Below, one piece after another: positions 6,682 to 50,945 of a DNA stretch of 64,000 bases (its first letter is position 1; every line of letters starts with the position of its first letter). The position numbers and the translations under genes were made by a program. The stretch is taken from positions 2,400,001 through 2,464,000 of the forward strand of contig OY969695.1 in NCBI GenBank assembly GCA_963701965.1, given 5' to 3'. The notes under the pieces are model-generated. The model ran no database searches. It was given only the letters and a program-made list of their open reading frames with translations, and was not told the DNA's origin. The DNA is from an uncultured Gemmatimonadales bacterium (GTDB lineage Bacteria; Gemmatimonadota; Gemmatimonadetes; Gemmatimonadales; Gemmatimonadaceae).

Positions 6682-6745
6682 CGTATGCCATTGTTAGAAC
6701 AGACAACTGACCCTATCTCTCATAGCTTGCCGTATGCCATTGTTA
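6682..6745 (+). repeat. 15-bp direct repeat CGTATGCCATTGTTA (6682-6696, 6731-6745), probable operator
   Basis: Exact duplication just upstream of the RHH gene. Confidence 0.7.
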
Positions 6746-6765
6746 CCCACTCTTCCGGGCGCAGC

Positions 6766-6939
6766 GTGACCGACGCTAAGACCGAGCGCCTGGTTATTCG
6801 CATGAGCCCCGGCGACAAGAGATTGGTCGAGCGCGCAGCGGCCGCAGACGAGTTGGAAGTCTCGACCTGGGCTCGACGAGTTATTGTCCAGACGGCGAAA
6901 CGCCGGGACGCGAAGGACCGAGGCGGCGATGACGCATAG
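6766..6939 (+). CDS. Small ribbon-helix-helix protein (DUF1778/CopG-like)
   Basis: KTERLVIRMSPGDKRLVERAAAADELEVSTWARR alternating beta-strand plus two helices; GTG start. Confidence 0.7.
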   Translation: MTDAKTERLVIRMSPGDKRLVERAAAADELEVSTWARRVIVQTAKRRDAKDRGGDDA

Positions 6940-7095
6940 GTTCGAGTCAGTTGAGGGCGCCTGCCGCTGGCCGCTTGCCGGTCACAAACAGCATCGGCCC
7001 CTTTCGTCCGGACCAACGCACGTCGACGGGTGTAGCGGTAGAGTGTGCAGTGCGACTAATTTTGATTAGCTGCGATCCCTATTGATGATGTTGCC

Positions 7096-7914
7096 TTGAG
7101 TTCCCACGCTCACCATCCAGGGATGCCCGCCACGGCGAACCCAGGTCACGAAAAAGGCCAATCGGTAGTTCGCCGGCAATATGTGCGAGCACCGATTGTC
7201 GAAGCTGTGCTGGAGATCTCGGCGGACGTACCGGCTGACGTCACGCCTGGCGCGCTTGGCAGTCAGTTAGAGCCTGAGCGCCAGAGGTACGATCAGAAGT
7301 TCGACGTGTCGACCTTCGGTGCCGGCGTGACGATCGACGCAACAGGTGTGACTGCTCCCTCGGCAACGGCCCAGCAACAACTCATGGGCTATATGTTCGT
7401 CGACCCTCACAATCACCGCTTATTCCAAGTACGGCGTAACGGATTCCTCCATAGCAAGCAGGCACCATACGACAAATGGGAATCGTTTCGAGATGAGGCC
7501 CGGCGCCTGTGGCAGCTCTACGTCGCGGCAGCGCGTCCAACGCTCGTTCGTCGACTCGGCCTACGCTATATCAATCGGCTCGACTTGCCGACTGGTGAGC
7601 CGGATCTCAAAGAATACTTGTTGACCGGTCCTGAGATAGCCCTCGGAATTGCCCAAAGCCTTTCTGGTTATACAATGCAGTTAGATATCCCTCAGCCGGA
7701 TATTCCGAACTGTCTGTTGATCATTCGCGAGGCCATAGTTAAACCGCCGCGCCCCAATGTCTTCTCGATCGTCTTTGACATGGACATCCTGTGCGGCCAG
7801 CAGTTCAACCCTTCTGACACAGCGATCTGGACAGCTTTGGAGCAGATGCATACACGGGCCGACGAAACCTTCGAACGCTCCATTACTGATCGAGTACGGG
7901 AGATAATCGCGTAA
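7096..7914 (+). CDS. TIGR04255-family protein
   Basis: N-terminal YVRAPIVEAVLEI, YDKWESFR, RRLGLRYINRL, FDMDI, FERSITD motifs recalled for this family. Confidence 0.75.
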   Translation: MSSHAHHPGMPATANPGHEKGQSVVRRQYVRAPIVEAVLEISADVPADVTPGALGSQLEPERQRYDQKFDVSTFGAGVTIDATGVTAPSATAQQQLMGYMFVDPHNHRLFQVRRNGFLHSKQAPYDKWESFRDEARRLWQLYVAAARPTLVRRLGLRYINRLDLPTGEPDLKEYLLTGPEIALGIAQSLSGYTMQLDIPQPDIPNCLLIIREAIVKPPRPNVFSIVFDMDILCGQQFNPSDTAIWTALEQMHTRADETFERSITDRVREIIA

Positions 7915-8288
7915 TGCCTTTACTCGCACCTCCAGCGACAATTGCACAGACAAAGGCAACGGGGACCGACATACTTGTCGTCTTCCGTGCGGCACCTGCG
8001 TCGACTTTGGAGCGGGCCGCACTTGAGGAGCAACTGTCCGTCGCTACGAAAGTGCTTTCGATGAGTACGCGCACAGTGATGTTAGCTCAGGGTCTCGAGT
8101 CACGCCTACAAGGCGGCCGCAACACCGTGCGAGCGGGCGCCCGGCCACAGAGCTGGATGGCGGCGGCGATGGCAGTATTCCCGAACTCTCGTTCGCTCAC
8201 GCCGCAGGAGAACGCCGAGCTGGACACACTCTACAGTCGTACCTTGCGTCCTCTTTCACAGCCGCTGCGAAAACTGCCGAACGTCTGA
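7914..8288 (+). CDS. Hypothetical protein, middle gene of a three-gene cassette
   Basis: TAATG overlap with the upstream gene; abuts the downstream gene. Confidence 0.6.
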   Translation: MPLLAPPATIAQTKATGTDILVVFRAAPASTLERAALEEQLSVATKVLSMSTRTVMLAQGLESRLQGGRNTVRAGARPQSWMAAAMAVFPNSRSLTPQENAELDTLYSRTLRPLSQPLRKLPNV

Positions 8289-8936
8289 ATGCTCAGGGAG
8301 TTTACTCGGTTCGTTCAGAGTATCTTCCCCGCAATTGATCCGGGCAACGCTCGCGCGTTCCTAAAAGCACAGTTCGAATACGCTCCGGTTTGGCCAGATC
8401 TGTTCGCGACACGCCTTCCGCCCAAGATCTGCCAAGGCGACATCCTTGCACCGATAACCTTCATTGTCCAGGCATCCGACGGCACTTACGGCGAATGGAC
8501 CGGACCTGGTATGCTGCTGTCGCATTCATGCGACGTCGATGAGGGAGACTATGTTTGCTTCGCACCGTGTCGACGGTTTGAGGAGTATCGTACTGTCAGC
8601 TTCGTCGGCGCCCTCCTGAGGAACACAATCTTTCGCTTGTTCTACGTGCAAGGCGTGCCCACGATCGGCGACACTGTGGTCGACTTCGACGTTACGCAAA
8701 CCACGCGTAGGGCTTTGATAGTGCAGGGCGTGGAGACGGACTCCATACGGCGTGTTTCAAGCTTTACGGATTACGGCTATTGGCTCCTCGTGGCCAAAAT
8801 GACTGTGCATTCACTCCGTCCACCGGCTCCCGACGAGGTCCGAGAGGTTTCTCGTCCTGGTCTCGCGACGCGGGCAGCCGCAGCCTACAAAGAACTAGTT
8901 GCACTTGCGGGATATCTTGTGAGAGGCCGGGGATAG
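8289..8936 (+). CDS. Hypothetical protein with QGD...SHSCD motifs (possibly divergent PemK/MazF-like fold)
   Basis: ICQGDIL, GMLLSHSCDVD, VVDF; coupled to the upstream gene (TGA ATG). Confidence 0.6.
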   Translation: MLREFTRFVQSIFPAIDPGNARAFLKAQFEYAPVWPDLFATRLPPKICQGDILAPITFIVQASDGTYGEWTGPGMLLSHSCDVDEGDYVCFAPCRRFEEYRTVSFVGALLRNTIFRLFYVQGVPTIGDTVVDFDVTQTTRRALIVQGVETDSIRRVSSFTDYGYWLLVAKMTVHSLRPPAPDEVREVSRPGLATRAAAAYKELVALAGYLVRGRG

Positions 8937-9019
8937 AGTCGGCCGCGCGCTCACTTATCGAACTCCGGCAGATTGAACGGGTCGTCGAGGAACATCGAGA
9001 CAGCGAGTGGAGGCGTGGC

Positions 9020-9289
9020 ATGCGTACTTCCGAACCCAACACCGGTGAGCGCGTGCGGGACGTGCGGATCACAGAAGATGCTGTCAGCATCGATCTCGTC
9101 GACGGGCGGACGCTTGTTGTCCCACTTGCATGGTTCCCGCGCCTGCTGCACGCCACGCCCGAGCAGCGCGCGCACTGCAAGATCGCTGGCGGCGGTTTCG
9201 GCATCCACTGGCCGGATATTGATGAAGACCTAAGCACGGCCGGGATGCTTCGGGGCGGACCGGGACCTCGGACGCTGGCAACCGCCTAG
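9020..9289 (+). CDS. DUF2442-family protein (putative antitoxin-like)
   Basis: IDLVDGRTLVVPLAWFPRLLHATPEQR...GIHWPDIDEDLS. Confidence 0.85.
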   Translation: MRTSEPNTGERVRDVRITEDAVSIDLVDGRTLVVPLAWFPRLLHATPEQRAHCKIAGGGFGIHWPDIDEDLSTAGMLRGGPGPRTLATA

Positions 9290-9408
9290 TCTGGGGTCAC
9301 CCGCGCGCTCAGTCGCACCCAGGGCCCAACTTTCGGTTGTGCGCGCCGGCTTGGCGAATCAGTATCGTGGGTTGGCCTCGGCCTCAACTCCTGGCAGCAA
9401 TACGGCAA

Positions 9409-11442
9409 TCAATCCGCGTTGGAGAATCTGGCGTTGACGCTCTTAAACAAGGCCGCAAACCTGTCGAGAGTCGGGTCATCGATTTCGGCCGCCGGACTGC
9501 TCACGAGCGTCTTGGCGACCGCATAGTGGTTGTAGCCGCCTGATGGTCTCAGCTCGACGCCCTCCTTCTCTAACCATTGGTTGACCCGCTCGACGATCCG
9601 ATCGCCGGGCGGAAGGTCCGCCTCTTTGATCTGCTTGCTGCCGAGCTCCTTCTCGAACGTCCTGTTGAAGAGCTCGACGTAAACCTTGGGGGAGATGAGA
9701 TCCTCGATGTCGCTGGCGCGTAGACCTGGCGTTGCTTTCGAGCCTTTCGCTGACTTGGTGTGAGATCCATCACGGAAAGCGGCGTACATCACGAGTTGCT
9801 TCTCACGCAGGATTTTCTCGCGAATCAGAGAGTCCAACCGAGCATCCGACCGCCCCGAATAATCGGACACGACGACTAGTTCGAGCGCGTTGGCGCCGAG
9901 CAGCGCGACGAACGTTGCGATCTTGTCGAGACCGCCCACAGGCGTGATTACAACGTCAGTGCGCAGCGCCTCACGCCCGCTAGCTTCGCATTCAGCGGAG
10001 AAGAACTGCAAGTATGCAAGGTCGGCCACTCCCTCGACGACCAGGTTTCGCTTGGCGATGAAGAGGTTCTGAGCAACTGTATACCCGAGGGCAGCCTGAA
10101 GTGGGAACAGCGTCTTCGAGTCAGAACCGTCAACCCGGTCGAATACCTTGGTCCCTACTTCGTCGCGATCCTCGACCACTCTGACCTGTACGAGCCGGTC
10201 CGAGTGTACCATGAACGGGGAGTGAGTGGTGTAGATGACTTGATGCTGCGTCGCCAGGTCGTCAATGTAGCGGAGCAGATCGGCTTGGGCCAGCGCATGA
10301 AGACTCAGGCCAGGCTCATCCAATAGGAGAATCAACGGAGCGGCGACGGCACCACCTGCATCAATCGCTCGTTGCTTTACGCTGTCGAACCAAACAAGAA
10401 AGCTGAAGAACCAGATGAACCCCTTACTACGCTGACTAAATGGGACGGTCACACGATGCCGTTGGTTCTTGATGCGAATGTACAGGTTCGGCCCATTGTT
10501 GAACGGTGCGACATCTGTCGGGTCATCGCGAATGTCCACGACCACTTCCAGGGTCTTGTTTTGCCGCCAGTACTTAAAGATCTGATCCGTGATCCTATTC
10601 GAGACACCCTCCAGCTTCGCCCTCGCCGATTCGTAGCCCGTCTGTTTCAACAACTCGTCGAGATTTACGCGGGCCATTTGAAGCAGCGCGAGGACCGCTT
10701 GCTCCTCGCCAGTCAGACGCAGGGCTTTGTTGGCACGCGCGCTCTGAACCCGTGAGTGAAGGGTGTTGAGGTTTGCCTTGCCTGGCAGCAACCGATAATC
10801 GTCAAAGTAGAAGAACCGTGGAACGCGAAGAGCCAAATATTTTTCCCATAACTCCCACTCCAAGACATTCTCCCAGCCTGAGCTGCCGAAACGAGCATGG
10901 AGCCCCTTGAGAAAGGCGTCGCCCTCGGCTGTCAAATCCTTACCATCTAGCAGCGCAATGAGGGCTTTTATGCTGGTCGCTGCGCGCGCTGCTTGTGCAA
11001 TCGATTCAGGGAGCGGTATGTCCTTGAGGAGGTGCTTCACGTAGACCGATTCGTTTACCGCTTGGGCTATCTCAACTTTGCCGGGACCTTGGTATTCCTC
11101 CTTCACGCCAAGCTGAAATGGCTTGAGCAGCGCAATCCCTAATGCGTCGTTCACCACTTGCACATCCCGCTCGTCTACCTGGTAGCGAAGAGACGAAACG
11201 ATCGCCTTCTTGTTTGGGTGAAGGTCCTCGAACCGAGTCAGGTCTTTTCGCGGATACTCCTCGGTCACATCGAATCCCTGGTCTTCGGAGAAGACCGGAT
11301 TTGACTGGTAGAGCGCCTGCAAAAACGCGGTTTTGCCTGCCTCGTTCTGGCCGACAAGGACGGTTGTCTTGGCGTCGATTGGCACAGCGCCACTGTCGTC
11401 GATCGACTTGTATCGTGTTACCTGCGCGCTAAGTAGTTGCAT
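9409..11442 (-). CDS. OLD-like ATP-dependent nuclease (ABC-type ATPase + TOPRIM)
   Basis: YKSIDDS, Walker A GQNEAGKT, signature RSKGFIWF, Walker B LLLDEPG, H-loop TTHSP, TOPRIM LVVEGVAD, DIEDL. Confidence 0.85.
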   Translation of the reverse strand: MQLLSAQVTRYKSIDDSGAVPIDAKTTVLVGQNEAGKTAFLQALYQSNPVFSEDQGFDVTEEYPRKDLTRFEDLHPNKKAIVSSLRYQVDERDVQVVNDALGIALLKPFQLGVKEEYQGPGKVEIAQAVNESVYVKHLLKDIPLPESIAQAARAATSIKALIALLDGKDLTAEGDAFLKGLHARFGSSGWENVLEWELWEKYLALRVPRFFYFDDYRLLPGKANLNTLHSRVQSARANKALRLTGEEQAVLALLQMARVNLDELLKQTGYESARAKLEGVSNRITDQIFKYWRQNKTLEVVVDIRDDPTDVAPFNNGPNLYIRIKNQRHRVTVPFSQRSKGFIWFFSFLVWFDSVKQRAIDAGGAVAAPLILLLDEPGLSLHALAQADLLRYIDDLATQHQVIYTTHSPFMVHSDRLVQVRVVEDRDEVGTKVFDRVDGSDSKTLFPLQAALGYTVAQNLFIAKRNLVVEGVADLAYLQFFSAECEASGREALRTDVVITPVGGLDKIATFVALLGANALELVVVSDYSGRSDARLDSLIREKILREKQLVMYAAFRDGSHTKSAKGSKATPGLRASDIEDLISPKVYVELFNRTFEKELGSKQIKEADLPPGDRIVERVNQWLEKEGVELRPSGGYNHYAVAKTLVSSPAAEIDDPTLDRFAALFKSVNARFSNAD

Positions 11443-11920
11443 GGTTCGCTTATGGACCTGAGAGCCCAGGAGGTAAGAAATCACTGGCGTCCGTGTGCGC
11501 CGACTCGATCGGTGTCTGCGTCCGCGCGATTACACCTACTTCCTAAGTGGTCTTGAGGTGATGGGCGCGCACCCGGCCATATCTTACCTGCAAATGCCGA
11601 GGTTGGCTACGGACGTTTGTCTCAAGGTCGATAGGTGTGACGAGCGACTCTTGAATGGTCCGGCCCTGGGCAGCCGACGCTCTGATGGGGGATGACGTAG
11701 CGTGAAGAGCAACGCCTTCGGCGTTGGAGTGGCTCGCCCACGAGAACGCTTGTCGCATTTGAAGTTGCGAGTGCTGGCGAACTGTGGGCACTCTCGTGGG
11801 CGCCCTCAGCGAGAAAGGGCGGCTTCCCCTGTACTCCGTGGGAACCGCCCTCTTCGCTAAGCCGACTGCAACGAGCTACTTGGCAATCAGGTGCACTCTC
11901 GTATCGTTTTCAACCCAGCC

Positions 11921-12026
11921 TTTGCAGACCGCTGCCTTACCACTTGGCTACCGCGCCAGAAACAGCCCGTAAGCTATTCTTGCTAATTGACTTGAACAAG
12001 TCGGGCCGGTTACCCGACTGGTTGGC
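11921..12026. repeat. Copy 2 of tRNA-Cys 5' half plus promoter (att junction)
   Basis: Identical to 5322-5385, similarity continues about 40 bp further; tRNA match stops at the anticodon loop. Confidence 0.95.
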
Positions 12027-37026: not shown

Positions 37027-38435
37027 CCGCGGGGCTCAAACGCACGATGAACATGCGCGACCTGGTGTTGTTCAACCTCGTCGCCGTCATCGGATTGCGT
37101 TGGCTGAACACGGCGGCCAAGTCCGGGCCCTCGTCCATCGTCCTCTGGCTGCTGGCGGCGGTGATGTTCTTCATCCCGCAGGGCCTTGCCGTCGGCGAGC
37201 TCTCGGCGCGCTACCCGAAAGAAGGCGGCATCTACTTCTGGACCCGCCGCCGGTTCGGCGAGGGGCACGGGTTCTTCTGCGGCTGGTGCTATTGGGTAGT
37301 GAACGTCCTCTACTACCCACAGCTCCTGCTCTCGGGCGCCGTCATCGTGCTGTTCGTGTTCGGCAAAGGCGACTCGGGACTCGCCGAGAGCTGGCCCTAC
37401 GTGCTGACCGCCTGCACGCTGATGCTGTGGTTTGCCGTGGCGCTCAACGTGGTGGGGCTGGGCACCGGGAAGTGGCTGCAAAACCTCGGCGGCATCGGGA
37501 CGTACGGGGCGGGCGTGATCGTGCTGCTCGTCGGCATCTATGCGATGTTCACCCATCCGAGCGCCAATCCGATCACGGCGCGCGCCCTCGTGCCCAATTT
37601 CGGCTCGTTCACCGAGGTGAATCTCTGGGCCACGATCGCGTTCGCGTTCGCCGGCCTCGAGCTCGCGGCGACCCTGGGCGACGAGATCCAGGACGCCGGG
37701 CACGCGTTGCCGCGCTCCACGTACATCTCGGCGCCCTTGATCGCGGGGATCTACGTCCTGGGCACGGTGTGCGTGTTGTGGCTCGTGCCCGTCGATTCCC
37801 TCAAGCTGACGTCGGGATTTCTGCAAGCGATCGAGATCGGCGCGCAGCGCCTGTGGTGGCTGGCGCCGCTGGCCGCCGCGGCGTACACCGTCGGCAACAT
37901 CGGGGGCGCCGGTGCCTGGCTCGCCGGGCCCGCGCGCGTGGCGTTCATGATCGGCCTCGACCGGTATCTCCCTCGGGCCTTCGGGCGCATCCATCCCCAA
38001 TGGGGCACGCCGTACGTCGCCATCATCGTGCAAGCGGCCATCGCCACGCTCGTGCTGCCGCTGGCAGCCATGAGTAACGGGGCGTCGGGACATGGCACGA
38101 CGGTCGAGCAGGTGTACCTCGACATTCTCGACGCACAGCTCCTCATCTACTTCGTCCCGTTCATCTATCTGTTCTGCTGTCTCTTGCTGGAGCGCGACAC
38201 CGATCGCGCCGGCATGGCGAAATCCGTGATCCCCGGCGGCACGTTCGGCCGCGTCCTCACCGCCACGTCGGGCCTCTTCGTCACTGTATTCGCCATGGTC
38301 GTCGCCGCGATCCCCCCGTCGGACCAGGACCCCTTACTCTTCGAGCTCAAGGTCGTCGGCGGGGCGATGGTGTTTTATCTCGTCGGATACGGCTTCTACT
38401 GGCACGGCGCCCGGACCCGGGTCCCATTATCATGA
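37023..38435 (+). CDS. APC-family amino acid/polyamine permease
   Basis: VIGLRW, ELSARYPKEGGIYFW, FAFAGLE; about 12 TMs; ATGA overlaps. Confidence 0.9.
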   Translation: MTAGLKRTMNMRDLVLFNLVAVIGLRWLNTAAKSGPSSIVLWLLAAVMFFIPQGLAVGELSARYPKEGGIYFWTRRRFGEGHGFFCGWCYWVVNVLYYPQLLLSGAVIVLFVFGKGDSGLAESWPYVLTACTLMLWFAVALNVVGLGTGKWLQNLGGIGTYGAGVIVLLVGIYAMFTHPSANPITARALVPNFGSFTEVNLWATIAFAFAGLELAATLGDEIQDAGHALPRSTYISAPLIAGIYVLGTVCVLWLVPVDSLKLTSGFLQAIEIGAQRLWWLAPLAAAAYTVGNIGGAGAWLAGPARVAFMIGLDRYLPRAFGRIHPQWGTPYVAIIVQAAIATLVLPLAAMSNGASGHGTTVEQVYLDILDAQLLIYFVPFIYLFCCLLLERDTDRAGMAKSVIPGGTFGRVLTATSGLFVTVFAMVVAAIPPSDQDPLLFELKVVGGAMVFYLVGYGFYWHGARTRVPLS

Positions 38436-41011
38436 AACGCTGGTCGCTCCTGGCCCTCTGCCTCGCGGCACCGGTGAGCGCGCAGCGCGAGCCCGTGCTC
38501 GAGCAGATCGTGCTGCCGCACGCGTACTACTATCGCGAGATGTACCTCCCCCAGGTGACGAGCGGACCGAGCACGGTCACGTGGTCGCCCGATGGGCAGA
38601 GCGTGATCTACTCGATGCAGGGCTCGCTCTGGCGTCAGCGCCTGGGCACAACGGAAGCCGAGCAGCTGACGGCGGGTCCCGGGTACGACTTTCAGCCGGA
38701 CTGGTCGCCCGACGGCCGGTCGGTGGTCTACGTGTCCTATCGCGGCGACGCCGAGGAGCTGCGGTTGCTGGACCTGGCGAGCGGCGACGATCATCCGCTC
38801 ACGGTCAACGGCGCCGTCAACGTCGACCCGCGCTGGTCGCCCGACGGATCGCGCCTGGCGTTCGTGTCCACGGTCTATCAGGGCCGCTTTCACATCTACG
38901 TCGCGACCATCAAGACAGGACAGCTCGACGCCGTTCGCCGCGTCACCGAGGACCACGACAGTCATCTGCCGCGCTACTACTACTCGGTATTCGACCACTA
39001 CCTCTCACCGACGTGGTCGCCGGACGGCGCCGAGCTCCTGTTCGTCTCCAACCGCGGGCACGTGTGGGGCACGGGTGGTCTGTGGCGGGCGCCGGCCGAC
39101 AGCGGCCCGGCCGACCGCGCACGGCAGATCCCGGCGCAGCCGGGATCAGTCCAACCGACTTCGGATCTCGCGACGCGAAGCGTCGAGATCCGGAACGAAG
39201 AGACGGCCTGGAAGCCGCATCCCGACTGGTCGCGCGACGGGCATCGCGTAGTCTATAGCTCGTTCGCCGGCCGGCAGTGGAACCAGCTGTGGCTGACGAC
39301 GCCGAACGGCGACTTTCCCGTGCAGCTGACCTACGGCGACTTCGACGCCACGGTGCCCCGGTGGTCGCCGGACGGCGGCCGGATTGCGTTCATCGCCAAC
39401 GAGGGTGGCAACACATCGCTGCGCATCGTCGCCGTCCCGGGTGGTGCGGTCTCCATCGTCACGGCCAAGCAACGCCATTACAAGGGAGCGGTCGGCGTGC
39501 TCCGCGTCATGGTGCGCGATGCGACCGGCCATCCGATGCCTGGCCGCGTCTCGGTCTCGGGCCGTGGCGATCGCACCTACGCCCCGGACGACGCCTGGCG
39601 TTACGCCGACGACTCGTTCGACCGCAAAACGCGGCGCCTGGAGATCGGATACTTCCAGACCACCGGCGCGTCGGTGCTCACCGTTCCCGCCGAGAGCGTC
39701 ACCGTCGATGTGTCGCGCGGCCTCGAGTATCGTCCGGCGCATCGCCGCGTCGCCATCAAGCCCGGCGACACGACGACCGTGGTCGTGGGGCTCCCCCGTA
39801 TGGCCAACCTCCCGCCGGAGGGTTGGTACAGCGGCGACCTTCACGTGCACATGAACTACGGGGGCACGTATCGGAACACGACCGCGCATCTCGCCGAGCA
39901 GGCGCGCGCCGAGGACGTGCACGTCATCGAAGACTTGATCGTGAACAAGGAGGGGCGCATCCCCGACGTGGGGTCGTTCATTCCCGGCGGGCGCGCCGAT
40001 CCGGCGAGCGACGCCAACACGCTCATCGTCCACGGCCAGGAATTTCACACCAGCTACTGGGGCCACGCCGGCCTGTTGGGTCTTCGGTCGTCGCTGATCC
40101 TGCCCGGCTACGCCGCGTACGCGTCGACCCCGGTCGCGAGCCTCGTGCCCACCAACGCCGACGTCGCGGGCATGGCCCACGCCGACCGCGCGCTGCTTGG
40201 CTACGTGCACCCGTTCGACGTCTACCCCGATCCCGCGGATATGGGCACGGCGCTGACCGATGAGCTACCCGTCGATGTCGCTTTGGGCGCCGTAGACTAT
40301 ATGGAGATCGTCGGGTTCAGCGATCATTTGTCGACCGCCCGCGTATGGTATCAGCTGTTGAATTGCGGGTTTCGTCTCCCCGCGGGCGCGGGCACCGACG
40401 CGATGGCCAACTACGCGTCGCTCCGCGGGCCGGTCGGTCTCAACCGCGTCTTCGTCCACGCCGGCTCGGCTCTCTGGCACGGCGCCTGGCTCGACTCGCT
40501 CAAGGCCGGCCGCTCCTTCGCCACGAACGGCCCGCTCCTCACCCTCACGATCGACGGACACGCGATCGGCGATGAGATCAAGGTCGCCGGCCCGACGACG
40601 CTGCACATCCATGCGACGCTGGCATCGATCGTGAGCGTCGACCATTTCGAGCTCGTGGGCCCGAGCGGTGTCGTGGCCAGCGTGGCGCTGACGGGCGACC
40701 GCACGACGGCGACCGCGGACTGGACGGTGACCGACTCGACCAGCGCCTGGTATACGGTGCGCGCGTACGCCGATCACGCGGCCGATCCGGCGTATCCGAT
40801 CCTGGACACCTACCCGTTCGCGACGACGAGTCCCATCTACGTGACCGTCGCCAACCGGCCAATGCGCTCGCCGCGCGATGCCCAGTATTTCGCCGCCTGG
40901 ATCGCGCGGCTCGCGGCCGGCGCGCGGAACTACACCGGGTACAACACGCCTGCCGAGCGGGCGCATGTGCTGGCCCAACTCGACTCGGCCGCTGCCGTCT
41001 TTGGTCATTGA
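38432..41011 (+). CDS. Exported TolB/PD40-repeat protein with CehA/McbA-type PHP metallohydrolase domain
   Basis: Repeated WSPDG motifs; WYSGDLHVHM, GQEFH, YVHP, AGTDA. Confidence 0.85.
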   Translation: MKRWSLLALCLAAPVSAQREPVLEQIVLPHAYYYREMYLPQVTSGPSTVTWSPDGQSVIYSMQGSLWRQRLGTTEAEQLTAGPGYDFQPDWSPDGRSVVYVSYRGDAEELRLLDLASGDDHPLTVNGAVNVDPRWSPDGSRLAFVSTVYQGRFHIYVATIKTGQLDAVRRVTEDHDSHLPRYYYSVFDHYLSPTWSPDGAELLFVSNRGHVWGTGGLWRAPADSGPADRARQIPAQPGSVQPTSDLATRSVEIRNEETAWKPHPDWSRDGHRVVYSSFAGRQWNQLWLTTPNGDFPVQLTYGDFDATVPRWSPDGGRIAFIANEGGNTSLRIVAVPGGAVSIVTAKQRHYKGAVGVLRVMVRDATGHPMPGRVSVSGRGDRTYAPDDAWRYADDSFDRKTRRLEIGYFQTTGASVLTVPAESVTVDVSRGLEYRPAHRRVAIKPGDTTTVVVGLPRMANLPPEGWYSGDLHVHMNYGGTYRNTTAHLAEQARAEDVHVIEDLIVNKEGRIPDVGSFIPGGRADPASDANTLIVHGQEFHTSYWGHAGLLGLRSSLILPGYAAYASTPVASLVPTNADVAGMAHADRALLGYVHPFDVYPDPADMGTALTDELPVDVALGAVDYMEIVGFSDHLSTARVWYQLLNCGFRLPAGAGTDAMANYASLRGPVGLNRVFVHAGSALWHGAWLDSLKAGRSFATNGPLLTLTIDGHAIGDEIKVAGPTTLHIHATLASIVSVDHFELVGPSGVVASVALTGDRTTATADWTVTDSTSAWYTVRAYADHAADPAYPILDTYPFATTSPIYVTVANRPMRSPRDAQYFAAWIARLAAGARNYTGYNTPAERAHVLAQLDSAAAVFGH
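39127..39191. repeat. Single copy of the palindromic element found tandemly in virD4
   Basis: GATCCCGGCGCAGCCGGGATCAGTCCAACCGACT identical to 2373-2406, followed by a CGACGC-GAA-GCGTCG hairpin. Confidence 0.9.
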
Positions 41012-41036
41012 TTTCGGTGTTTGTTCGGGTTATAAT
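41008..41036 (+). promoter_or_regulatory. Sigma70-type promoter TTGATT-17 bp-TATAAT upstream of the ECF sigma/S24 pair
   Basis: Perfect -10 and canonical spacing in a very GC-rich background. Confidence 0.7.
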
Positions 41037-41093
41037 TCTCTCCCCCATCCGCCCCTGTCCGGGCGTGGTGTCATTTCAGAGAGGGAGAGCGAC

Positions 41094-41822
41094 GTGCGCG
41101 GCTGGCGGGAGGATGCGGTGCGGCCGCGGACGGAGCGAGTCGCCGAGAATGCGGCGGCGCTGGCGGATCGCGGGCTCATCGTCGCCATGCGATGCGGAGA
41201 TCGCGGGGCCTTAGCCGAGTTTTATCGCCGGTTTCGGCCGGTGCTCGTCGTGGCCGTTCGCCGGTTCACGTGGGGCGGGACGGATGATGCGCCGGGGGCA
41301 ATAGACGGCGAGGCAGTCGTGGAGGACGTGCTGACGGATGCGGCGATTCGGTTCGTCACGACGACGGCGGCGGTGCCCGGGTCGGTCGCCGGGTATCTCG
41401 TCCGGATGCTGCGCAATCGCGTGCTCAACGCCGTGCGGGCGCGCGATCGCGAGGCGCGCCGCGTCGACGAGGGCATGGGGCGTTCCGAGTACGCGGAGCG
41501 CACCAGTGCTGGTCCGGAGAGCGCGGATGCCGGGCTCATGCTGTCGTCATCGGCCGCGCCGGCCGTGGTGCGGCTGGCGGCGGCGCTCGACGCCGCGATG
41601 ACCGACGACGACCGGCTCGTCGCGACGTGGCTCGGGAACGGCGTCTCGCAGCTCGACATTGCCGAGTGGCTGGGCGTGAGCCACTCGGCGCTGTGCAAGC
41701 GGGTGAGCCGGTTGCGGGCGCGGCTGCGTCTGGTCGCCAATCGGCATTTGGCGGGCGCGAGCGCGGAGGACCGGCAGGTGTTGGACGCGGTATTGGGAGC
41801 GAGAGGAGGTGCGCATGAGTGA
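41094..41822 (+). CDS. ECF-type RNA polymerase sigma factor
   Basis: Region 2 (GDRGALAEFYRRF...VEDV...YLVRMLRNRVLNAVR) and region 4 HTH (SQLDIAEWLGVSHSALCKRVSRLRARL); GTG after GAGGGAG. Confidence 0.75.
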   Translation: MRGWREDAVRPRTERVAENAAALADRGLIVAMRCGDRGALAEFYRRFRPVLVVAVRRFTWGGTDDAPGAIDGEAVVEDVLTDAAIRFVTTTAAVPGSVAGYLVRMLRNRVLNAVRARDREARRVDEGMGRSEYAERTSAGPESADAGLMLSSSAAPAVVRLAAALDAAMTDDDRLVATWLGNGVSQLDIAEWLGVSHSALCKRVSRLRARLRLVANRHLAGASAEDRQVLDAVLGARGGAHE

Positions 41823-42546
41823 GCAAGGCGAGTTGTTTGATCCGTTAGCGCCGCCCAGCGCGGCGGCGCCGGGCGATGCGCTGCTCGCGCTCGTTGGTGA
41901 GGCATTGCCACCACCGCCCGACGAGCGGCCCTCGCGAGGCGAGCGCCGCTTTTGGGATTGGTACGCGCACCGAAGCCGCGGCCAACAGTCGCGAGAGGAC
42001 GCCCGAAACACCGAGTCCGGCGTGAGCGCCTTTGTCGAGCGCGTGTCCGCACGGCTCGCGTCGCTGGCCGCGCCACTGCGCCGGGTCGAGACCGCGGCGC
42101 TCCGCCATCCCGCCATCGTGGGAGGACCGGTGTCGAGTACACTCGCGCTCGCGCGCGCCGCCGGCGCGGCGCCGTTGGTCGAGGTCGGCGTCGCGGCCGG
42201 GAGTGGGCGCGAGATCTGGGATGAAGTGACGGACGCCTGGGTTCTGGTGCCGGAGGATCTGCCGTCCCACCGCTACGTGGCGATGCGGGTCACGGGCGAC
42301 AGCATGACACCGCTACTGCACTCCGACGATGTGGTGCTCATCGATCTTGACGATGGCGATACATCCGCGGGCGCGATCGTCGTCGCCCGCAACGCCGACG
42401 ACGGATACGTCGTGAAGCAGATCACCGCCAACGACGGTTTCGACATCGAGCTCGGTTCACTCAACCCCGATTACGCACCGTTGCACATCTCAGCAACGAG
42501 GAATCTAGTACTGGGTCGCGTCGTGCTCCGGTGGTGCGAGCACTGA
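41815..42546 (+). CDS. S24 (LexA/UmuD-type) serine peptidase without N-terminal HTH
   Basis: VAAGSG Ala-Gly site, GDSM Ser, YVVKQ Lys, SLNPDY; GGAGG RBS; overlaps sigma stop. Confidence 0.85.
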   Translation: MSEQGELFDPLAPPSAAAPGDALLALVGEALPPPPDERPSRGERRFWDWYAHRSRGQQSREDARNTESGVSAFVERVSARLASLAAPLRRVETAALRHPAIVGGPVSSTLALARAAGAAPLVEVGVAAGSGREIWDEVTDAWVLVPEDLPSHRYVAMRVTGDSMTPLLHSDDVVLIDLDDGDTSAGAIVVARNADDGYVVKQITANDGFDIELGSLNPDYAPLHISATRNLVLGRVVLRWCEH

Positions 42547-42642
42547 GCCTATCACGAATTCTGCACACTTTCGTCGTGCAAACCCTGACACCCCGAGCGG
42601 CATCTCATCGTACAGTTGTCAAGACCCCCACAGGGAGATGAG

Positions 42643-43056
42643 ATGCAGATGCGGTTTGCAAGCGGCGCCATGCTCAGGAGCGCGATGTTCAGGAGAGCCT
42701 TGCTCCCAGCGGCGCTGGTGGCATCGGTCGGATTCACCAATCGCGTACCGTCGACCGAGCCCGCCCCGATCGCGGGCCGGGTGATGGACCTGGTTGGCGA
42801 TGCGGTCCAGTTCGCGCACGTCCGGATCACCGATCAAATGACCGGCGCGGTCCTGACGACCCTCACATCATTGAACGGGAACTTCGTGATCGAGAATCTC
42901 TCCCGCGATCACCACTACAGCGTCGACGTCCGGTGTATCGGGTACGTGCCCCGCACGCTGACCGACGTGCAGCCCACCGCCGACGGCGCCGCGATCGCGG
43001 ACGTCATGATGGAACCGATCCCCCGGCGCGCAACGCCGCGTATCGCCAGTCTTTAG
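42643..43056 (+). CDS. Exported carboxypeptidase-regulatory-like (Ig-fold) domain protein
   Basis: IAGRVMD..GDAV..AHV, T..NGNF.I..L, Y.V.V...GY. Confidence 0.7.
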   Translation: MQMRFASGAMLRSAMFRRALLPAALVASVGFTNRVPSTEPAPIAGRVMDLVGDAVQFAHVRITDQMTGAVLTTLTSLNGNFVIENLSRDHHYSVDVRCIGYVPRTLTDVQPTADGAAIADVMMEPIPRRATPRIASL

Positions 43057-44075
43057 CTGGCGACGAGCGGCATGACCTGCGCGCTGAAGCGCTCCATCTC
43101 CTCGAGCTGCGGGCTGCACTGCAGCAGGAGCAGGTCGACCCCGGCGTCCGAGAAAGCCCGGATGCGCTCGGCGACCATCTCCGGCGTCCCCACGAGCCCC
43201 GCCCGCAGCCCGCGATTGGAGACGGAATAGTCTTCCGGGCTCACGGCCTGCTCGAGTTTCGTGTTGGCCAACCAATCCTGATAGCCGGCGTATCCCGGCG
43301 ACCCGGGACCGACGTTGGTGATACGGGCCCGCTCGCGCTCGGCCTCGGCTACCGTGTCGCGCACGATCACATAGGCCGCCATCCCGAACGTCATCGGCAC
43401 CTGCCCCGTGGCGGCGCGGCGGCGGCGCATGTCCTCGACCTTGGGCGCCACGCGCTCCGGCGGGTCGCCGTGCATGACGTACGCGTCGCACTGCGATGAG
43501 ATCAACGTCTTGGCCGCCTCCGACTCGCCGCCCGCGTAGACGACCGGCGGCCGCACGGGCTTCGGCTCCAGCACGCTGTCCGTCACCGAGTAGTACTTCC
43601 CCTCGAACGTGAAGCGGCTGTTGCACCACGTGCCCTGGACCACGCGCAGCCACTCGTCCGTGCGCGCGTACCGATCATCGTGCTGCTCGAAGTGCACCCC
43701 GTAGCGCCGCGCCTCGTCGGCCCACCAGCTGGAGACGACGTTGAGCGCCAGACGCCCGTTGGCAATGCGGTCGATGTTCGCGGCCTGCTTGGCCAGGATC
43801 GCCGGGTTGTGGAACGTGGGCCGTACCGCGACCATGAGCTCCAGCTTTGTGGTCACGGCCGCCAACGCCGCCGCCGTCGACCACGCGTCGAGCGCCGGCG
43901 CGTCGATGCCTTTGATGTCGTTCAGAAACAACTCGGCGATCAACGTCAGGTCGTAGCCCAGCGCTTCGCTGCGCTGCGCCACCGCGCGCGTGTACTCCCA
44001 CGAGGCTTCCATCCGCTCATCGGGGATATTGCGCAGCCACCCGCCAAAGACGGGCATCCAGTAGCCGTAGCGCAT
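43053..44075 (-). CDS. LLM-class flavin-dependent monooxygenase (SsuD/SfnG-like)
   Basis: AVRPTF, LAKQAANIDRIANGRLALNVVS, YAGGES, LVGTPE. Confidence 0.9.
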   Translation of the reverse strand: MRYGYWMPVFGGWLRNIPDERMEASWEYTRAVAQRSEALGYDLTLIAELFLNDIKGIDAPALDAWSTAAALAAVTTKLELMVAVRPTFHNPAILAKQAANIDRIANGRLALNVVSSWWADEARRYGVHFEQHDDRYARTDEWLRVVQGTWCNSRFTFEGKYYSVTDSVLEPKPVRPPVVYAGGESEAAKTLISSQCDAYVMHGDPPERVAPKVEDMRRRRAATGQVPMTFGMAAYVIVRDTVAEAERERARITNVGPGSPGYAGYQDWLANTKLEQAVSPEDYSVSNRGLRAGLVGTPEMVAERIRAFSDAGVDLLLLQCSPQLEEMERFSAQVMPLVAS

Positions 44076-45022
44076 CAGCAGACGCGCGTCAGGATGTAGT
44101 CGACCAGCCGCTCGTGCGGGTCGAACCCGACGACGTTGCGCGCGTCGGCCACGAAATTGGACAGTGCGTTCACGTCGTAGAAGTAGTACTCGCCGTCGCG
44201 ATCATCGATCAGGCACTCAATGCCGCCCACGTCCAGCTTGACGTGACGGGCGATCTGCTCGACGGCCCGAATGATCTCCGCCGGCGGATTGGCCCGCTCC
44301 ACGCGCATGCCGTTCTTCGGCGCATCGAGCGCGCAGGCCGACCGGCTCAGCGCCCGGCCATCGGTGGTTTGGCACACGTCGGCCGGACAGAGATTGTAGG
44401 AATCCTCCGCCGGGAAGACGTTGATCGCGTACAGAAACGCGCCGCCCAGCGTCTCCAGCCGCGTGATGTGGCCCCCGCGGAGCGGCGCCAACTCCTGCAC
44501 CAACGCGACACCATCGACACCGAAATCGAGGGTCCCTTCCTCGGCGGCCGTGCGCACGGCGCCGGGATCGTCAAACCGCGTGATGCCGGCGCCGCTCCCG
44601 CCCACGTTGGCCTTCACGAGAATCGGGTACCGGAGATCCGCCGCGGCCTCGGAGACTGTGGCCCCCGAGTTTGCGATCCGCGTCCGCGGAAAGGGAAGCC
44701 CGAGGGTCGCCAGCGCATCGAGCTGCACGGCCTTGGACGTGTCCATCGCGTAGGCCGACTCGCCATTGACCACCGGCACGCCCAGGCGCTCCAAGTGGCG
44801 GAGCCACTGCAGCGTATAGAACGTGGATCCATTGTGGCCGCGCAGGTATGCCGACGGGCTGGCCCGGTTGAAGACCGCGCTGTATGGCACCGACTTTTCC
44901 GACGGGTCGTACCGGTGCGCCGCCGCGTCCAGGCGCACGAACGGCACGCGGCGTCGGTCCAGTTCGGCGAACAATGGACGAAACCAGTCCGGGTGTTCGT
45001 AATAGATGGCGATGGGTTCCAT
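44075..45022 (-). CDS. ATP-grasp (RimK-like) ligase
   Basis: LVKANVGGSGAGI, LVQE, GGIE, YDVNALSNF. Confidence 0.85.
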   Translation of the reverse strand: MEPIAIYYEHPDWFRPLFAELDRRRVPFVRLDAAAHRYDPSEKSVPYSAVFNRASPSAYLRGHNGSTFYTLQWLRHLERLGVPVVNGESAYAMDTSKAVQLDALATLGLPFPRTRIANSGATVSEAAADLRYPILVKANVGGSGAGITRFDDPGAVRTAAEEGTLDFGVDGVALVQELAPLRGGHITRLETLGGAFLYAINVFPAEDSYNLCPADVCQTTDGRALSRSACALDAPKNGMRVERANPPAEIIRAVEQIARHVKLDVGGIECLIDDRDGEYYFYDVNALSNFVADARNVVGFDPHERLVDYILTRVC

Positions 45023-45039
45023 GCGATATAATTTAGGCT
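45023..45039. promoter_or_regulatory. Overlapping divergent -10 elements (TATAAT +, TAAATT -), each 7 nt from an ATG
   Basis: 17-bp intergenic GCGATATAATTTAGGCT between divergent start codons. Confidence 0.6.
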
Positions 45040-46152
45040 ATGTCCAGCCCCGCCGCGCGTCCGGACGCCGTGCCCGCACCGGACATCCATCCCGAGTCAC
45101 CCGAGACCCCCACGCGAACCTGGATCATTCGGGGGGTCATCGCCCTCGCCCTTGTCGTGGGCATCGTCTGGGGGGTGCGCAAGTTCATTTACAGCCAGTC
45201 CCACGAGACGACCGACGACGCCCAACTCGCGGGGCACGTCATCCCGGTCATCCCCAAGGTCAGTGGCTACATCCAAAAGGTGTACGTCAACGACAACCAG
45301 CCCGTCAAAGCGGGCGATACGCTCGTCGTGCTCGACCCGCGGGACTATCAGGTCGCCTTGGACCGGTCCGAAGCCGAGCTGCGCTCGGCGTTGGCCGCCG
45401 GCACCCGCGGCAGCGCCACGGCGGCCGTCAACGTCGCCGAGGCGCAGCACGCGGCGCTGGCGGCGGACGTCGCGGTCGCGCAGGCGAACTTCGATCGCGC
45501 CGAGCATGACGTGCAACGGTTTCGCGACCTGGCGGCCAAGAACATCATCTCGGCGCAGCAGCTGGATCAGGCGATCGCGGCCGACAAGGCGGCGGCCGCG
45601 CAGTTGGCGGCGGCCCAGGCCCAGGCGGTGAGCGGCGGGGCCAACGTCACGGGCGCAAACTTCGAGGCGCGGAACGCGGACTTCCGCGTGGCGAGCCTCA
45701 CCGCGGCGCTCAACAACGCGCGCCTGCAGGTGGCCTATACGACCCTGCAGTCGCCCATCAACGGCATCACGGCCAAGAAGAACGCCGAGATCGGGCAGTA
45801 CGTGCAAGCGGGGCAGCAGCTGCTGGCGATCGTCGAGACCGACACGGTGTGGGTGGTCGCCAACGTGAAAGAGACACAGATGCGTGACATCAAGCCCGGA
45901 CAGGACGCCGAAGTGACCGTGGACGCGATCCGGGGCCTTACGCTGCACGGCAAAGTGCAGTCGATCCAGGACGCCACCGGCGCCACGTTCGCGCTGCTGC
46001 CGCCCGACAACGCCACCGGCAACTTCACGAAGATCGTGCAGCGCGTCCCCGTGAAGATCGCGCTGGAGAAGCCGAGCGTGAACGGCCGGCCGCTGTCGCC
46101 AGGGTTGTCGGTCGAAGTGTCGATCGATACGAAGAGCGGGACGAACCGCTAG
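45040..46152 (+). CDS. HlyD/EmrA-family membrane fusion protein
   Basis: ETTDDAQ, PKVSGY, FALLPPDNATGNFTKIVQRVPVKI. Confidence 0.92.
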   Translation: MSSPAARPDAVPAPDIHPESPETPTRTWIIRGVIALALVVGIVWGVRKFIYSQSHETTDDAQLAGHVIPVIPKVSGYIQKVYVNDNQPVKAGDTLVVLDPRDYQVALDRSEAELRSALAAGTRGSATAAVNVAEAQHAALAADVAVAQANFDRAEHDVQRFRDLAAKNIISAQQLDQAIAADKAAAAQLAAAQAQAVSGGANVTGANFEARNADFRVASLTAALNNARLQVAYTTLQSPINGITAKKNAEIGQYVQAGQQLLAIVETDTVWVVANVKETQMRDIKPGQDAEVTVDAIRGLTLHGKVQSIQDATGATFALLPPDNATGNFTKIVQRVPVKIALEKPSVNGRPLSPGLSVEVSIDTKSGTNR

Positions 46153-48225: not shown

Positions 48226-49763
48226 CGCAGGTTGGCCGGCGGCGCGAACCGCGATTCGGCGATCGCGGGCACGGCGACCGCCGACGTGATGAGGATCACG
48301 ACGGGCGGTGCCGCGGTCCCGCCTTTGGTCCCGCTCTCGATGCGCGACGGGAACTTGACCCCGCCGACATCCACGTAGGACTCGAAGAACGACTCGTACG
48401 TTTGCGGCTTGCCGTCGTGGGTGACGGTGCCCTCCCATTTCACAGGCAGGGACGTGCCGCGGTCGATGAAGTACACATGCTGTGCCCCATCGCTCAGGGT
48501 CACACGCAGCTTGTACGCGTCGCGGCCCCGCACGGGCTCAGTGCCGATGAGCGCGACGGCGGCGCCCTTGGCGCGATAGTCCACCAAGGGTCCCAGCAGG
48601 TCCGCCTCGTGGGAGATGTTCTGTTGCTCGTCGGGTGACATGCGCGTGGGCGTGGTGTCGCCCGGTGCCACCTGCCATCCCGTCCGGCCATCGAACACGC
48701 GGAGGAGGGTCTTGCCGCCCTCCGTGAGCTGCATCCGCATCTCATTGGGCAGCTTGTACTCGATCAGCTCGGCCGCCGTGTCCCGCCTGCTCAGGAGAAA
48801 CAGGCCCTTGAGCTTCACAGACTGGAGCGCGCGCATGTTGGCCAGTCCCCCACGCGCGGCGATGACCCGGGCGATGATGGCATCGACCGAATCGCCCGGC
48901 TCCGCACCCGGCGTCGCGCCGCTCGTGACCCAGGCCGTCCACCAGATGTCCCGCAACATGCGGGCACCCGCTTCCAACCGCTCGGCCGTGAACTGGCGGT
49001 GCGCGGCATCGGTCGTCGTCGAGTCGAACGGTGCGCGCTGCTCCAGGTCGTACAGCTCCGTGACGTGCGAATGGGTCTCGCGCAGATAGTCGAGGATCGC
49101 GGGACGGAGCGACGCGAAGACCCGCGCCGGCTCGGCGATGCGCAGCGCGGCATCGCCCGGCGCGAAATGCGTCTGGACGTAAATGGTCTCGAATCGCGCG
49201 TGGAACCCGTGGGCCGTGGTGTATCCCTTGGGGTTGTCGCCGACCCATCCGTCGAAGTGGATGGTGGTATGGTGCGGGTTCGATGCGTCGGCGACGAAGT
49301 GGCCGAGGATGCCGGCGTCGTTGATGGCGCGGGCCTCGATCCAGCCGCGCGTCCGCGCGTCCGTCGCGGCGCGCCACAGACGGAACTCCTCGCGGAGGCG
49401 TTGCGACAACTCGAGGATGCCGAACGGCAGGAGGCCGGCCCCCGACGCCTCGACACCCGCGACGCGGAGCGAGTCGAGATACGCGAACCGGTCTTTGGCA
49501 GCCAACGCGCCGGGTGGGACGCGCTCCATGTCGATGAAATGGTCCGGCGCGAAAGCGTCATCCATCGCCGGGTCCAGCCCGCGCTCGGCGCGATCGCGCC
49601 AGCGGTCGGGCTCGGGGTTGAGGTACGACAGCTGATCGGCGGCCTGACGAAAAAAGGCGGGCATCTCCTGCGGGAGCGCCGCGGCCGCCGCGGCACCAAT
49701 CATTCGATGACCCGCCTCGCCCCAGCGGGCGAACAACACGAGGGCGATCAGCGTCGTCTTCAT
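48222..49763 (-). CDS. Exported S1/P1 nuclease (zinc phospholipase C-like) fused to a C-terminal beta-rich domain
   Basis: WGEAGH, PDRWR, HFID, GHFVADASNPHH, HARFE; second domain starts SVDAIIARVIAARGG. Confidence 0.8.
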   Translation of the reverse strand: MKTTLIALVLFARWGEAGHRMIGAAAAAALPQEMPAFFRQAADQLSYLNPEPDRWRDRAERGLDPAMDDAFAPDHFIDMERVPPGALAAKDRFAYLDSLRVAGVEASGAGLLPFGILELSQRLREEFRLWRAATDARTRGWIEARAINDAGILGHFVADASNPHHTTIHFDGWVGDNPKGYTTAHGFHARFETIYVQTHFAPGDAALRIAEPARVFASLRPAILDYLRETHSHVTELYDLEQRAPFDSTTTDAAHRQFTAERLEAGARMLRDIWWTAWVTSGATPGAEPGDSVDAIIARVIAARGGLANMRALQSVKLKGLFLLSRRDTAAELIEYKLPNEMRMQLTEGGKTLLRVFDGRTGWQVAPGDTTPTRMSPDEQQNISHEADLLGPLVDYRAKGAAVALIGTEPVRGRDAYKLRVTLSDGAQHVYFIDRGTSLPVKWEGTVTHDGKPQTYESFFESYVDVGGVKFPSRIESGTKGGTAAPPVVILITSAVAVPAIAESRFAPPANLR

Positions 49764-50827
49764 GCGCGCAAATTTCGCAGCGCCACCAAGAGCTCGGAAG
49801 GCCGGCGCGTTGGGGGCCGCACCCCGACGTGCAGGTAGTCATGACCCGCGCCGCTCCACTCGCGGCGCAGTGACACGGTGTGGGCACGGCCGCACTCGCA
49901 TTCCCACGCGTGTAACGACTCCGTACCCACGGCAGGGATCGGCAACGGCCCCGCCGTGAGCACCCGCGCGCACGTCACCCGTACGCCCGCCACCTGACAT
50001 CCAAATCTCACCCAAACGGTGCCCTCTCCGGCGGCCACGACTTGCCGCCCCTTGGCATCGAGCTCGACCCACCAGACGCGCGCCTGTCTCTTGTCTCCGG
50101 CCCCCGCCGCTCCGGACACCATCTCTCCGGTCACCGTCAACTCTCCGGCACACGTCACCAGTCCCTGTCTCGGGGCTCGTATCGCGCGGACGATGGCGGC
50201 GCCAAAGACAGCGTCGGCGCCTGCGGCGCGTAGCGCCGCGGCACAGGCGCCGAGGGTGGTCCCCGTGGTCACGATGTCATTGGCGACGATCACGACGCGA
50301 CGGCGCACGCTTTTGCGAACACGGTACGCGCCAGCGCTCGCCGCCCTTCGGGCGGCCGCGCCGAGTGTCGCTTGGCGAAAATCGCGGGTTTTCTCCAGCA
50401 CGGACGCCAAGCGAACTCCGGGAAGTGCACGCGCGGCGAGCGTGCACAGGGTCCGCATGTGCGTGCGATTGTGGCGAAAAGACGGCACCGGGGTCAGAAG
50501 TGTGTCATCAGGGAGCCCGTAGGTCGCCGCTACGGCCAGCACGCTGCGCGCGAGCATCTCGGCGAGGGCTGGACCGAGCGACGCCACGTCGGGGGCGTTG
50601 GCCGGCGAGGCTTCTTTGAATGCGACGACACCCGCGTACACGTCGCGAAGCGACGGTCGCGGGGCATCCCCTCTCCCGCGGTACATAGACGCGGTGATTG
50701 GGCACCCCGGTTCCCGCAGGCACGCTCCGCAGATGAGCCCGCCTTCGGCGATGATCCAGGTGTCTTCGGTCAGATCGTCCGAGCCGCATATCGCACACCG
50801 CCGCCCGGACAGCGGCTCACCGTTCAT
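49760..50827 (-). CDS. ComF-like phosphoribosyltransferase-fold protein with Cys-rich termini
   Basis: CAIC...ICGAC, LTPVPS, QATL...R, VIVANDIVTTGTTLGACAAALRAAGA. Confidence 0.7.
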   Translation of the reverse strand: MNGEPLSGRRCAICGSDDLTEDTWIIAEGGLICGACLREPGCPITASMYRGRGDAPRPSLRDVYAGVVAFKEASPANAPDVASLGPALAEMLARSVLAVAATYGLPDDTLLTPVPSFRHNRTHMRTLCTLAARALPGVRLASVLEKTRDFRQATLGAAARRAASAGAYRVRKSVRRRVVIVANDIVTTGTTLGACAAALRAAGADAVFGAAIVRAIRAPRQGLVTCAGELTVTGEMVSGAAGAGDKRQARVWWVELDAKGRQVVAAGEGTVWVRFGCQVAGVRVTCARVLTAGPLPIPAVGTESLHAWECECGRAHTVSLRREWSGAGHDYLHVGVRPPTRRPSELLVALRNLRA

Positions 50828-50945
50828 GCCGGTAGCTTCGATATTCGCGAACGCGCCACTGTCATCAGGGCGCCACGAGCATGCTTCCTGCGAACTGGGG
50901 CGGAATTCGATTTCCGTTCGCCCCCGCCCGGTCATCTTTCAGGGG

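Follow-up and report, generated by a model that had tools for sequence, protein, structure and literature searches.

A divergent sigma factor encoded with a LexA-type self-cleaving peptidase in Gemmatimonadota: a likely anti-sigma switch in the SOS response

What does a LexA-type self-cleaving peptidase do when it is encoded directly behind an extracytoplasmic function (ECF) sigma factor? The question is raised by two overlapping genes in the window, that is, the whole stretch of 64,000 nucleotides analyzed here, which comes from an uncultured Gemmatimonadales bacterium (GenBank assembly GCA_963701965.1, contig OY969695.1, positions 2,400,001 to 2,464,000 of the forward strand). A preliminary description made from the sequence alone had proposed that the N-terminal domain of the peptidase holds the sigma factor and that DNA damage releases it. 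We followed this up computationally and conclude, with a probability of roughly 0.7, that the S24 protein is a soluble anti-sigma factor with RecA-triggered self-cleavage. The elements of the locus, in window coordinates, are the following:

41008..41036, + strand: housekeeping-type promoter-like site, TTGATT-17 nucleotides-TATAAT, the sole such site within 40900-43200, against 0.1 expected from shuffled sequence
41013..41028, + strand: probable operator of LexA (SOS box), formed by TTCGG-N6-TTCGG as a direct repeat in the -35/-10 spacer
41056..41074, + strand: second leader motif, consensus approximately TGTMAC-N7-GTGTCT, score 17.0, candidate target of the sigma factor
41094..41822, + strand: divergent ECF-type sigma factor of 242 amino acids, GTG start, matched by the ECF model
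41815..42546, + strand: autopeptidase of the S24 family, 243 amino acids, its N-terminal domain helical and its ATG start overlapping the sigma stop
41869..42069, + strand: predicted sigma-binding (anti-sigma) domain, residues 19-85, from three predicted helices and the complex prediction
42190..42201, + strand: predicted self-cleavage site Val126-Ala127-Ala128 / Gly129; the N-terminal product would end in VAA
42301..42303, + strand: catalytic Ser163 (GDSM), aligned with the LexA nucleophile and invariant in 119 orthologs
42415..42417, + strand: catalytic Lys201 (VVKQ), aligned with the LexA general base and invariant in 119 orthologs

Both open reading frames and their 8-nucleotide overlap (ATGAGTGA at 41815-41822) were found as first described. 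The sigma factor is matched by the TIGR02937 sigma70-ECF model over residues 39-212 (E=8e-9, 35.3 bits); its score lies below the cut-off of 42.9 and it is therefore a divergent member of the family; the same model recognizes 42 of the 46 aligned relatives (E<=1e-5). By profile match it contains only regions 2 and 4, the feature that defines ECF factors, joined by a conserved linker (SE..R.S) and followed by a short C-terminal helical extension; the solved sequences nearest to its 46-row profile are CnrH, SigH and RpoE.

The pair is a conserved module of Gemmatimonadota, found in a group of soil bacteria. Some match to the S24 partner was present in 81 of 400 further genomes from this phylum, and 20 of them formed a clear group (E<=5e-26, the next match being at 4e-7), distributed over 16 of the 93 genomes of the same family and 4 of the 166 genomes of a second one. 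A sigma ortholog lies directly upstream on the same strand at all 20 loci, with an apparent frameshift in one sigma gene and in one partner gene, and one sigma that was matched partially. A scan of GTDB genomes yielded 208 confirmed relatives; the best 80 of these, which were analyzed, all belong to Gemmatimonadota and are named Gemmatimonadaceae or Gemmatimonadales. Nine of the 80 loci are at contig ends, and the sigma gene precedes the partner in 71/71 of the others. When the nearest in-frame start is taken mechanically, an overlap of the partner start with the sigma stop is seen at 60 of 65 GTDB loci. The reverse search with the sigma factor found 25 loci in 23/400 genomes, including the 20 pairs; the other five are a pair truncated at a contig end, a contig end that could not be resolved, two sigma genes with no partner and an unrelated ECF factor with a different downstream gene. 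A longer, fused form was not found, which is weak evidence. A viral origin was also considered and rejected, as 52 viral loci matched the S24 domain only.

The partner has a complete protease module, in agreement with the preliminary description, which had placed the Ala-Gly site in VAAGSG, the serine in GDSM and the lysine in VVKQ. Peptidase_S24 (PF00717) spans residues 121-237 (E=1e-17, 64.3 bits, cut-off 23.3) and was recognized by Pfam in 119/119 aligned orthologs; this alignment shows no variation at G129, S163 or K201, and A127 and A128 are each kept in 98%. In the 80 GTDB loci the Gly, Ser and Lys are likewise kept in 80/80 and the P1 residue is Ala in 79/80. In 72 of the 78 distinct orthologs the cleavage site reads VAA or IAA; it lies 35 or 36 residues N-terminal of the catalytic Ser, a distance equal to that in LexA of these genomes. 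The structural model of the partner (mean predicted local distance difference test, pLDDT, 87.8) consists of three N-terminal helices, a linker with a short helix and the S24 fold. Its C-terminal domain superposes on LexA and CI (Z 13.8, root-mean-square deviation 3.2, 127 aligned residues), LexA being the top fold match; in fold searches with the whole protein the matches listed were to the S24 domain. TIGR00498, the LexA model, aligns with the C-terminal part only and reaches 28.5 bits against a cut-off of 110.95. The partner is a member of the S24 family that stands outside the LexA/CI repressors and UmuD.

Outside the catalytic core the family has residues of its own, C139 (69%), C241 (55%) and H243 (58% of 119 orthologs; window 42229-42543), and a family-specific W-C-x-H tail; the copy in the window carries Thr at position 139. 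Cysteines are also present in the sigma linker, and a metal or redox role for these Cys and His residues is possible.

The N-terminal part, about 120 amino acids long, is where the partner departs from known S24 proteins. A helix-turn-helix (HTH) search with Pfam over the 119 orthologs returned one match at chance level (E=0.04), comparison with the profile of the LexA N-terminal domain gave no match (probability 0.1%), and three helices are predicted, at 19-29, 41-56 and 60-85. A 19-residue hydropathy of at least 1.9 was reached in 0/119 orthologs, and of at least 1.6 in 2/119. The claims that this region has neither a recognizable HTH nor a membrane segment therefore held. The 119 orthologs also matched no Pfam anti-sigma family and none of them has an HxxxCxxC zinc motif; the N-terminal part had no match among PDB sequences.

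The function of these helices was addressed by predicting the complex of sigma (46 rows) with partner residues 14-128 (119 rows), alongside 3 controls. The complex scored 0.75 and the best control 0.00; in a benchmark, which is rough since the alignments were self-built, this mark was attained in 116 cases among 157 solved complexes and in 2 among 215 mismatched pairs. The runs share at least 80% of contacts, with a partner pLDDT of at least 63. Predicted contacts join partner residues 20-84 to sigma residues 37-104, 149-215 and 233-238, the tightest being those of partner 66-77 with sigma 40-48 and 77-88. Counted as an interface, the model covers sigma 37-104 and 158-215; helix 60-85 sits on sigma regions 2.1/2.2, and the list of contact pairs gives no partner for helix 19-29. 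Class I anti-sigma domains have a dual contact surface, with the last helix on region 2.1/2.2 and the first on region 4, and their helix 4 covers the same sigma surface as partner residues 66-77 (PMC7406223). The N-terminal helices of the partner are thus predicted to bind sigma across regions 2 and 4, and the proposal of a domain holding the sigma factor is supported at the level of a structural prediction.

The promoter probably links the unit to DNA damage. The repeat TTCGG-N6-TTCGG occurs exactly in 18 of 20 ortholog promoters. With a matrix built solely from these 18 sites of other genomes, the site in the window ranks first genome-wide. Twenty-eight sites score at least 14 in this genome and several precede repair genes: the top ones lie upstream of dnaE2, an operon of an Rv2578c-like radical SAM gene with imuA, a TIGR03916-like gene, ruvB, recA and a third gene of the Slr1353_N family, described below, and others lie upstream of genes for which there is no repair link or none was identified. 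Two copies of the box precede lexA1. Across the 20 pair-bearing genomes, all of which have a canonical LexA and recA, a box scoring at least 10 is found upstream of lexA1 in 20/20 and of recA in 19/20 (control windows: 0/120 and 2/120, respectively) and upstream of the other lexA paralog, found in 13 genomes, in none of the 10 examined (control windows: 0/60); it is likewise carried by 54 of the 58 GTDB operon promoters that could be tested, a few of which overlap the training set, and none of these counts is independent, because the genomes are kin.

The two further S24 proteins of this genome are both full LexA by TIGR00498 (L001:1483-2085 and L002:1258-1965), two such paralogs being present also in 13 of the 20 relatives, and the TTCGG box lies upstream of the first only. 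The dnaE2 gene is split over two frames (G000:C1:2278783-2282092, L266), by a frameshift or an assembly error.

TTCGG-N6-TTCGG is therefore probably the operator of LexA1. The element is common to lexA and recA and overlaps the promoter, the property by which a LexA regulon is recognized, and the sigma-S24 unit is likely a member of the SOS regulon rather than LexA-independent. The preliminary description had envisaged an SOS-like circuit: the DNA-damage context stood, given the SOS box, and the idea of a stand-alone circuit did not, because the unit is under a probable LexA operator in genomes that have a canonical LexA. Its remark that no umuC lies nearby was confirmed: the IMS_C search found no umuC in the genome, and its two matches are both far from the pair, one being a gene like that of DNA polymerase IV and the other the gene that follows imuA.

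The second leader motif is a lead as to what the sigma factor might transcribe. Counted with a seeded matrix, leaving out 8 loci that overlap the training set, TGTMAC-N7-GTGTCT lies upstream of sigma in 35 of 56 loci and, in 19 of 59, upstream of the gene that follows the partner, on the coding strand only, compared to about 2% in shuffles. The pattern fits autoregulation together with control of downstream genes.

Taken together, these data suggest the following mechanism. The overlapping genes are inherited together. LexA would repress the operon at the TTCGG repeat, so that both proteins would at first be co-induced by damage, at roughly equal levels. Partner residues 20-84 are predicted to mask sigma region 2.1/2.2 and region 4, blocking the binding of RNA polymerase and of DNA. 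Activated RecA would then stimulate self-cleavage at Ala128-Gly129, as the intact LexA-type dyad and the spacing of the site suggest. Because the binding residues lie within the product 1-128, the cut by itself should not free sigma; the binding domain would stay whole on it and a second, degradative step would be needed. Of the claim that damage frees sigma, the holding by the N-terminal domain is thus supported by the prediction, and the sufficiency of cleavage is not.

The second step would be the removal of the sigma-bound fragment, with its VAA end, by ClpXP, a proposal to which we attach somewhat less confidence than to an anti-sigma factor with RecA-triggered self-cleavage. The clpX gene is present in this genome; in E. 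coli, ClpXP degrades the LexA fragment, which has a VAA end. From the candidate motif, the freed sigma might transcribe its own gene as well as the variable genes that follow the pair. Such a unit would form an arm of the SOS response with two gates, probably acting late. Precedents exist for the release step: cleavage of CalpT alone does not free CalpS, which requires the exposed LAA end and cellular proteases, and for RseA a VAA end and ClpXP are cited (bioRxiv 10.1101/2024.05.08.593097); in LexA, too, self-cleavage uncovers residues by which degradation is promoted (PMC9578287). The most complete form of the proposal, in which a one-chain anti-sigma autoprotease reads RecA on single-stranded DNA, carries a latent ClpXP degron and opens a short-spacer second SOS tier of exported proteins (RHS-repeat, TonB-dependent, beta-propeller), is tentative, and we would put it somewhat below even odds.

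Several observations weigh against this interpretation. Two related sigma genes (loci L126 and L130) have no adjoining S24 partner, and the sigma factor scores under its family cut-off, its binding to core RNA polymerase being presumed. Likeness to solved ECF/anti-sigma complexes may partly drive the complex score, and sigma co-diverges with the partner N-terminus (rho 0.40) no more closely than with the protease domain (0.44). An intact Ser-Lys dyad is no proof of RecA dependence. The VAA end is not independent proof of a degron, because LexA cleavage sites carry the same sequence ancestrally (18 of 19 lexA1 rows have VAA or IAA, one row being mis-picked). As to the candidate motif, ECF promoters have a spacer about one helical turn longer, for which that of the motif is short; a conserved element further upstream was not found, the motif is not enriched genome-wide (74 sites versus about 64 in shuffled DNA), and in this window it is absent after the S24 gene.

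Among the other explanations, the one that survives best keeps the binding of the partner to sigma and replaces the trigger, with cleavage answering to a redox signal, a metal or a phage product, or with an anti-sigma factor that is constitutively unstable. The family-specific C139, C241 and H243 and the cysteines of the sigma linker would suit such a trigger, but position 139 is Thr in the query, the distance from cleavage site to Ser matches LexA, the operon carries an SOS box, and the S24 proteins LexA, CI, UmuD, HdiR and SetR cleave on activated RecA (PMC9578287), so that we consider it unlikely. It is more unlikely still that cleavage yields an active product like UmuD', either a trimmed partner that co-activates sigma or a freed C-terminal domain that acts on the product of the third gene or on another repair protein. 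Such a role would fit the better conservation of the C-terminal domain (mean identity 55%, versus 29% for the N-terminal domain) and for the W-C-x-H tail, and a divergent sigma may need a helper; however, sigma region 2.1/2.2 has to be free for RNA polymerase and is buried in the predicted interface, and the genome has no umuC. Nearly all characterized S24 proteins of this length are repressors and the leader holds a second conserved motif, yet a CI/LexA-like repressor acting through an unrecognized DNA-binding domain, for instance on that motif, with sigma merely co-transcribed, is very improbable given the negative HTH results in 119 members and by LexA profile comparison, helices of 16 and 26 residues that are unlike an HTH, and the strong predicted sigma binding. 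We therefore retain the soluble anti-sigma factor cleaved in response to RecA as the likeliest explanation.

A third gene, of the Slr1353_N family, usually leads the operon, preceding sigma at 17 of 20 loci and at 45 of the 58 GTDB loci with room for it, and its distribution tracks that of the pair (22/401 genomes). In the genome studied here it lies away from the pair (G000:C1:3804246-3804623, L054) with an SOS box of its own, and this copy is shortened to about 125 amino acids and lacks the C-terminal helices. Its Atlas clusters are named PF27148 Slr1353_N at 0.97; direct searches gave no Pfam match and no PDB sequence match, PHROG families of unknown function were matched, and the single-sequence structure model is of low confidence. 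By resemblance of a motif, it may have a Rad52/Erf-like single-strand annealing role, which could not be confirmed.

The genes after the pair vary and often encode exported proteins, among them RHS-repeat proteins, a TonB-dependent receptor and RCC1/kelch propeller proteins (loci L049, L050, L053, L034 and L039 examined); L049 has an open reading frame that looks by eye like an endolysin. At L130, where sigma has no S24 partner, the next gene resembles those following the pair in L045, L047 and L050, and the same genome additionally carries two SOS-boxed modules. In the window, the pair is followed by one further gene:

42643..43056, + strand: small protein with a CarboxypepD_reg domain (PF13620, E=3e-14), not a conserved part of the module

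This gene is not among the neighbors common to 21 loci, and Rfam gave zero matches within window positions 38000-46000. Elsewhere, positions 6001-12000 form a low-GC block (0.56-0.60 versus approximately 0.68) that looks like an acquired island and includes a 691-amino-acid open reading frame with a P-loop-like motif (9412-11484, - strand). The open reading frame at 49760-50935 combines a weak phosphoribosyltransferase domain with Cys clusters and appears ComF-like by eye.

The known outcomes of self-cleavage stimulated by RecA are the destruction of repressors and the maturation of UmuD. If the proposed function is true, it would be a third use of the S24 switch, in which DNA damage activates, and does not just derepress, a gene set, and RecA would become the direct on-switch of a sigma factor. 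The two proteins are small and soluble, which makes the system directly testable in E. coli, and they could serve as a portable damage-inducible switch. In the literature covered, which excludes subscription papers and supplements, we found neither an S24 anti-sigma factor nor such a pair described, and no LexA box for Gemmatimonadota either. None of the terms LexA, S24, Gemmatimonad, SOS, RecA or DNA damage occurs in the 2021 ECF reclassification (main text), whose supplements may list the group. The three mechanisms given for soluble anti-sigma control in the accessible passages of a review on non-canonical ECF regulation (PMC8999054), namely conformational change, partner switch and mechanosensing, include none of S24 type. 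New here are the binding prediction with its controls, the argument for a two-step release and the candidate target motif.

Among known systems, LexA, lambda CI, UmuD, HdiR and SetR (PMC9578287) share with the partner the S24 fold, the Ser-Lys dyad, the Ala-Gly site 35 residues before the Ser and the SOS context. Unlike LexA, CI and UmuD, it has neither a DNA-binding domain nor a UmuC, and its N-terminus is predicted to bind sigma; UmuD has a short N-terminal arm and a umuC partner, whereas here the N-terminal part is about 120 amino acids long. Its cleavage would activate transcription by release, in contrast to the derepression that follows cleavage of LexA or CI. SigN of the Bacillus subtilis plasmid pBS32 is a LexA-repressed alternative sigma factor with positive feedback on its own gene (PMC6751061); there LexA acts at transcription and the accessible passages name no anti-sigma factor, whereas a second, post-translational gate is predicted here. 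With RseA and the class I anti-sigma factors (PMC7406223) the partner shares its place right after an ECF gene and N-terminal helices predicted on regions 2 and 4, and its predicted post-cut end is VAA, as is that of RseA (bioRxiv 10.1101/2024.05.08.593097). It differs from this RseA type of class I factors in being soluble, in having no zinc motif, three instead of four predicted helices and no anti-sigma family match, and in carrying its own protease, which replaces the need for membrane proteases. In CalpL-CalpT-CalpS of type III CRISPR, a filament-activated protease cuts an anti-sigma factor that is soluble, exposing an AA-ending degron, after which cellular proteases free the ECF sigma factor; CalpL is a Lon-SAVED protein of its own that cA4 activates, whereas here protease and anti-sigma factor form one chain and the likely activator is RecA on single-stranded DNA (bioRxiv 10.1101/2024.05.08.593097). 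The module would thus work like the release of RseA or CalpT joined to a LexA-type trigger.

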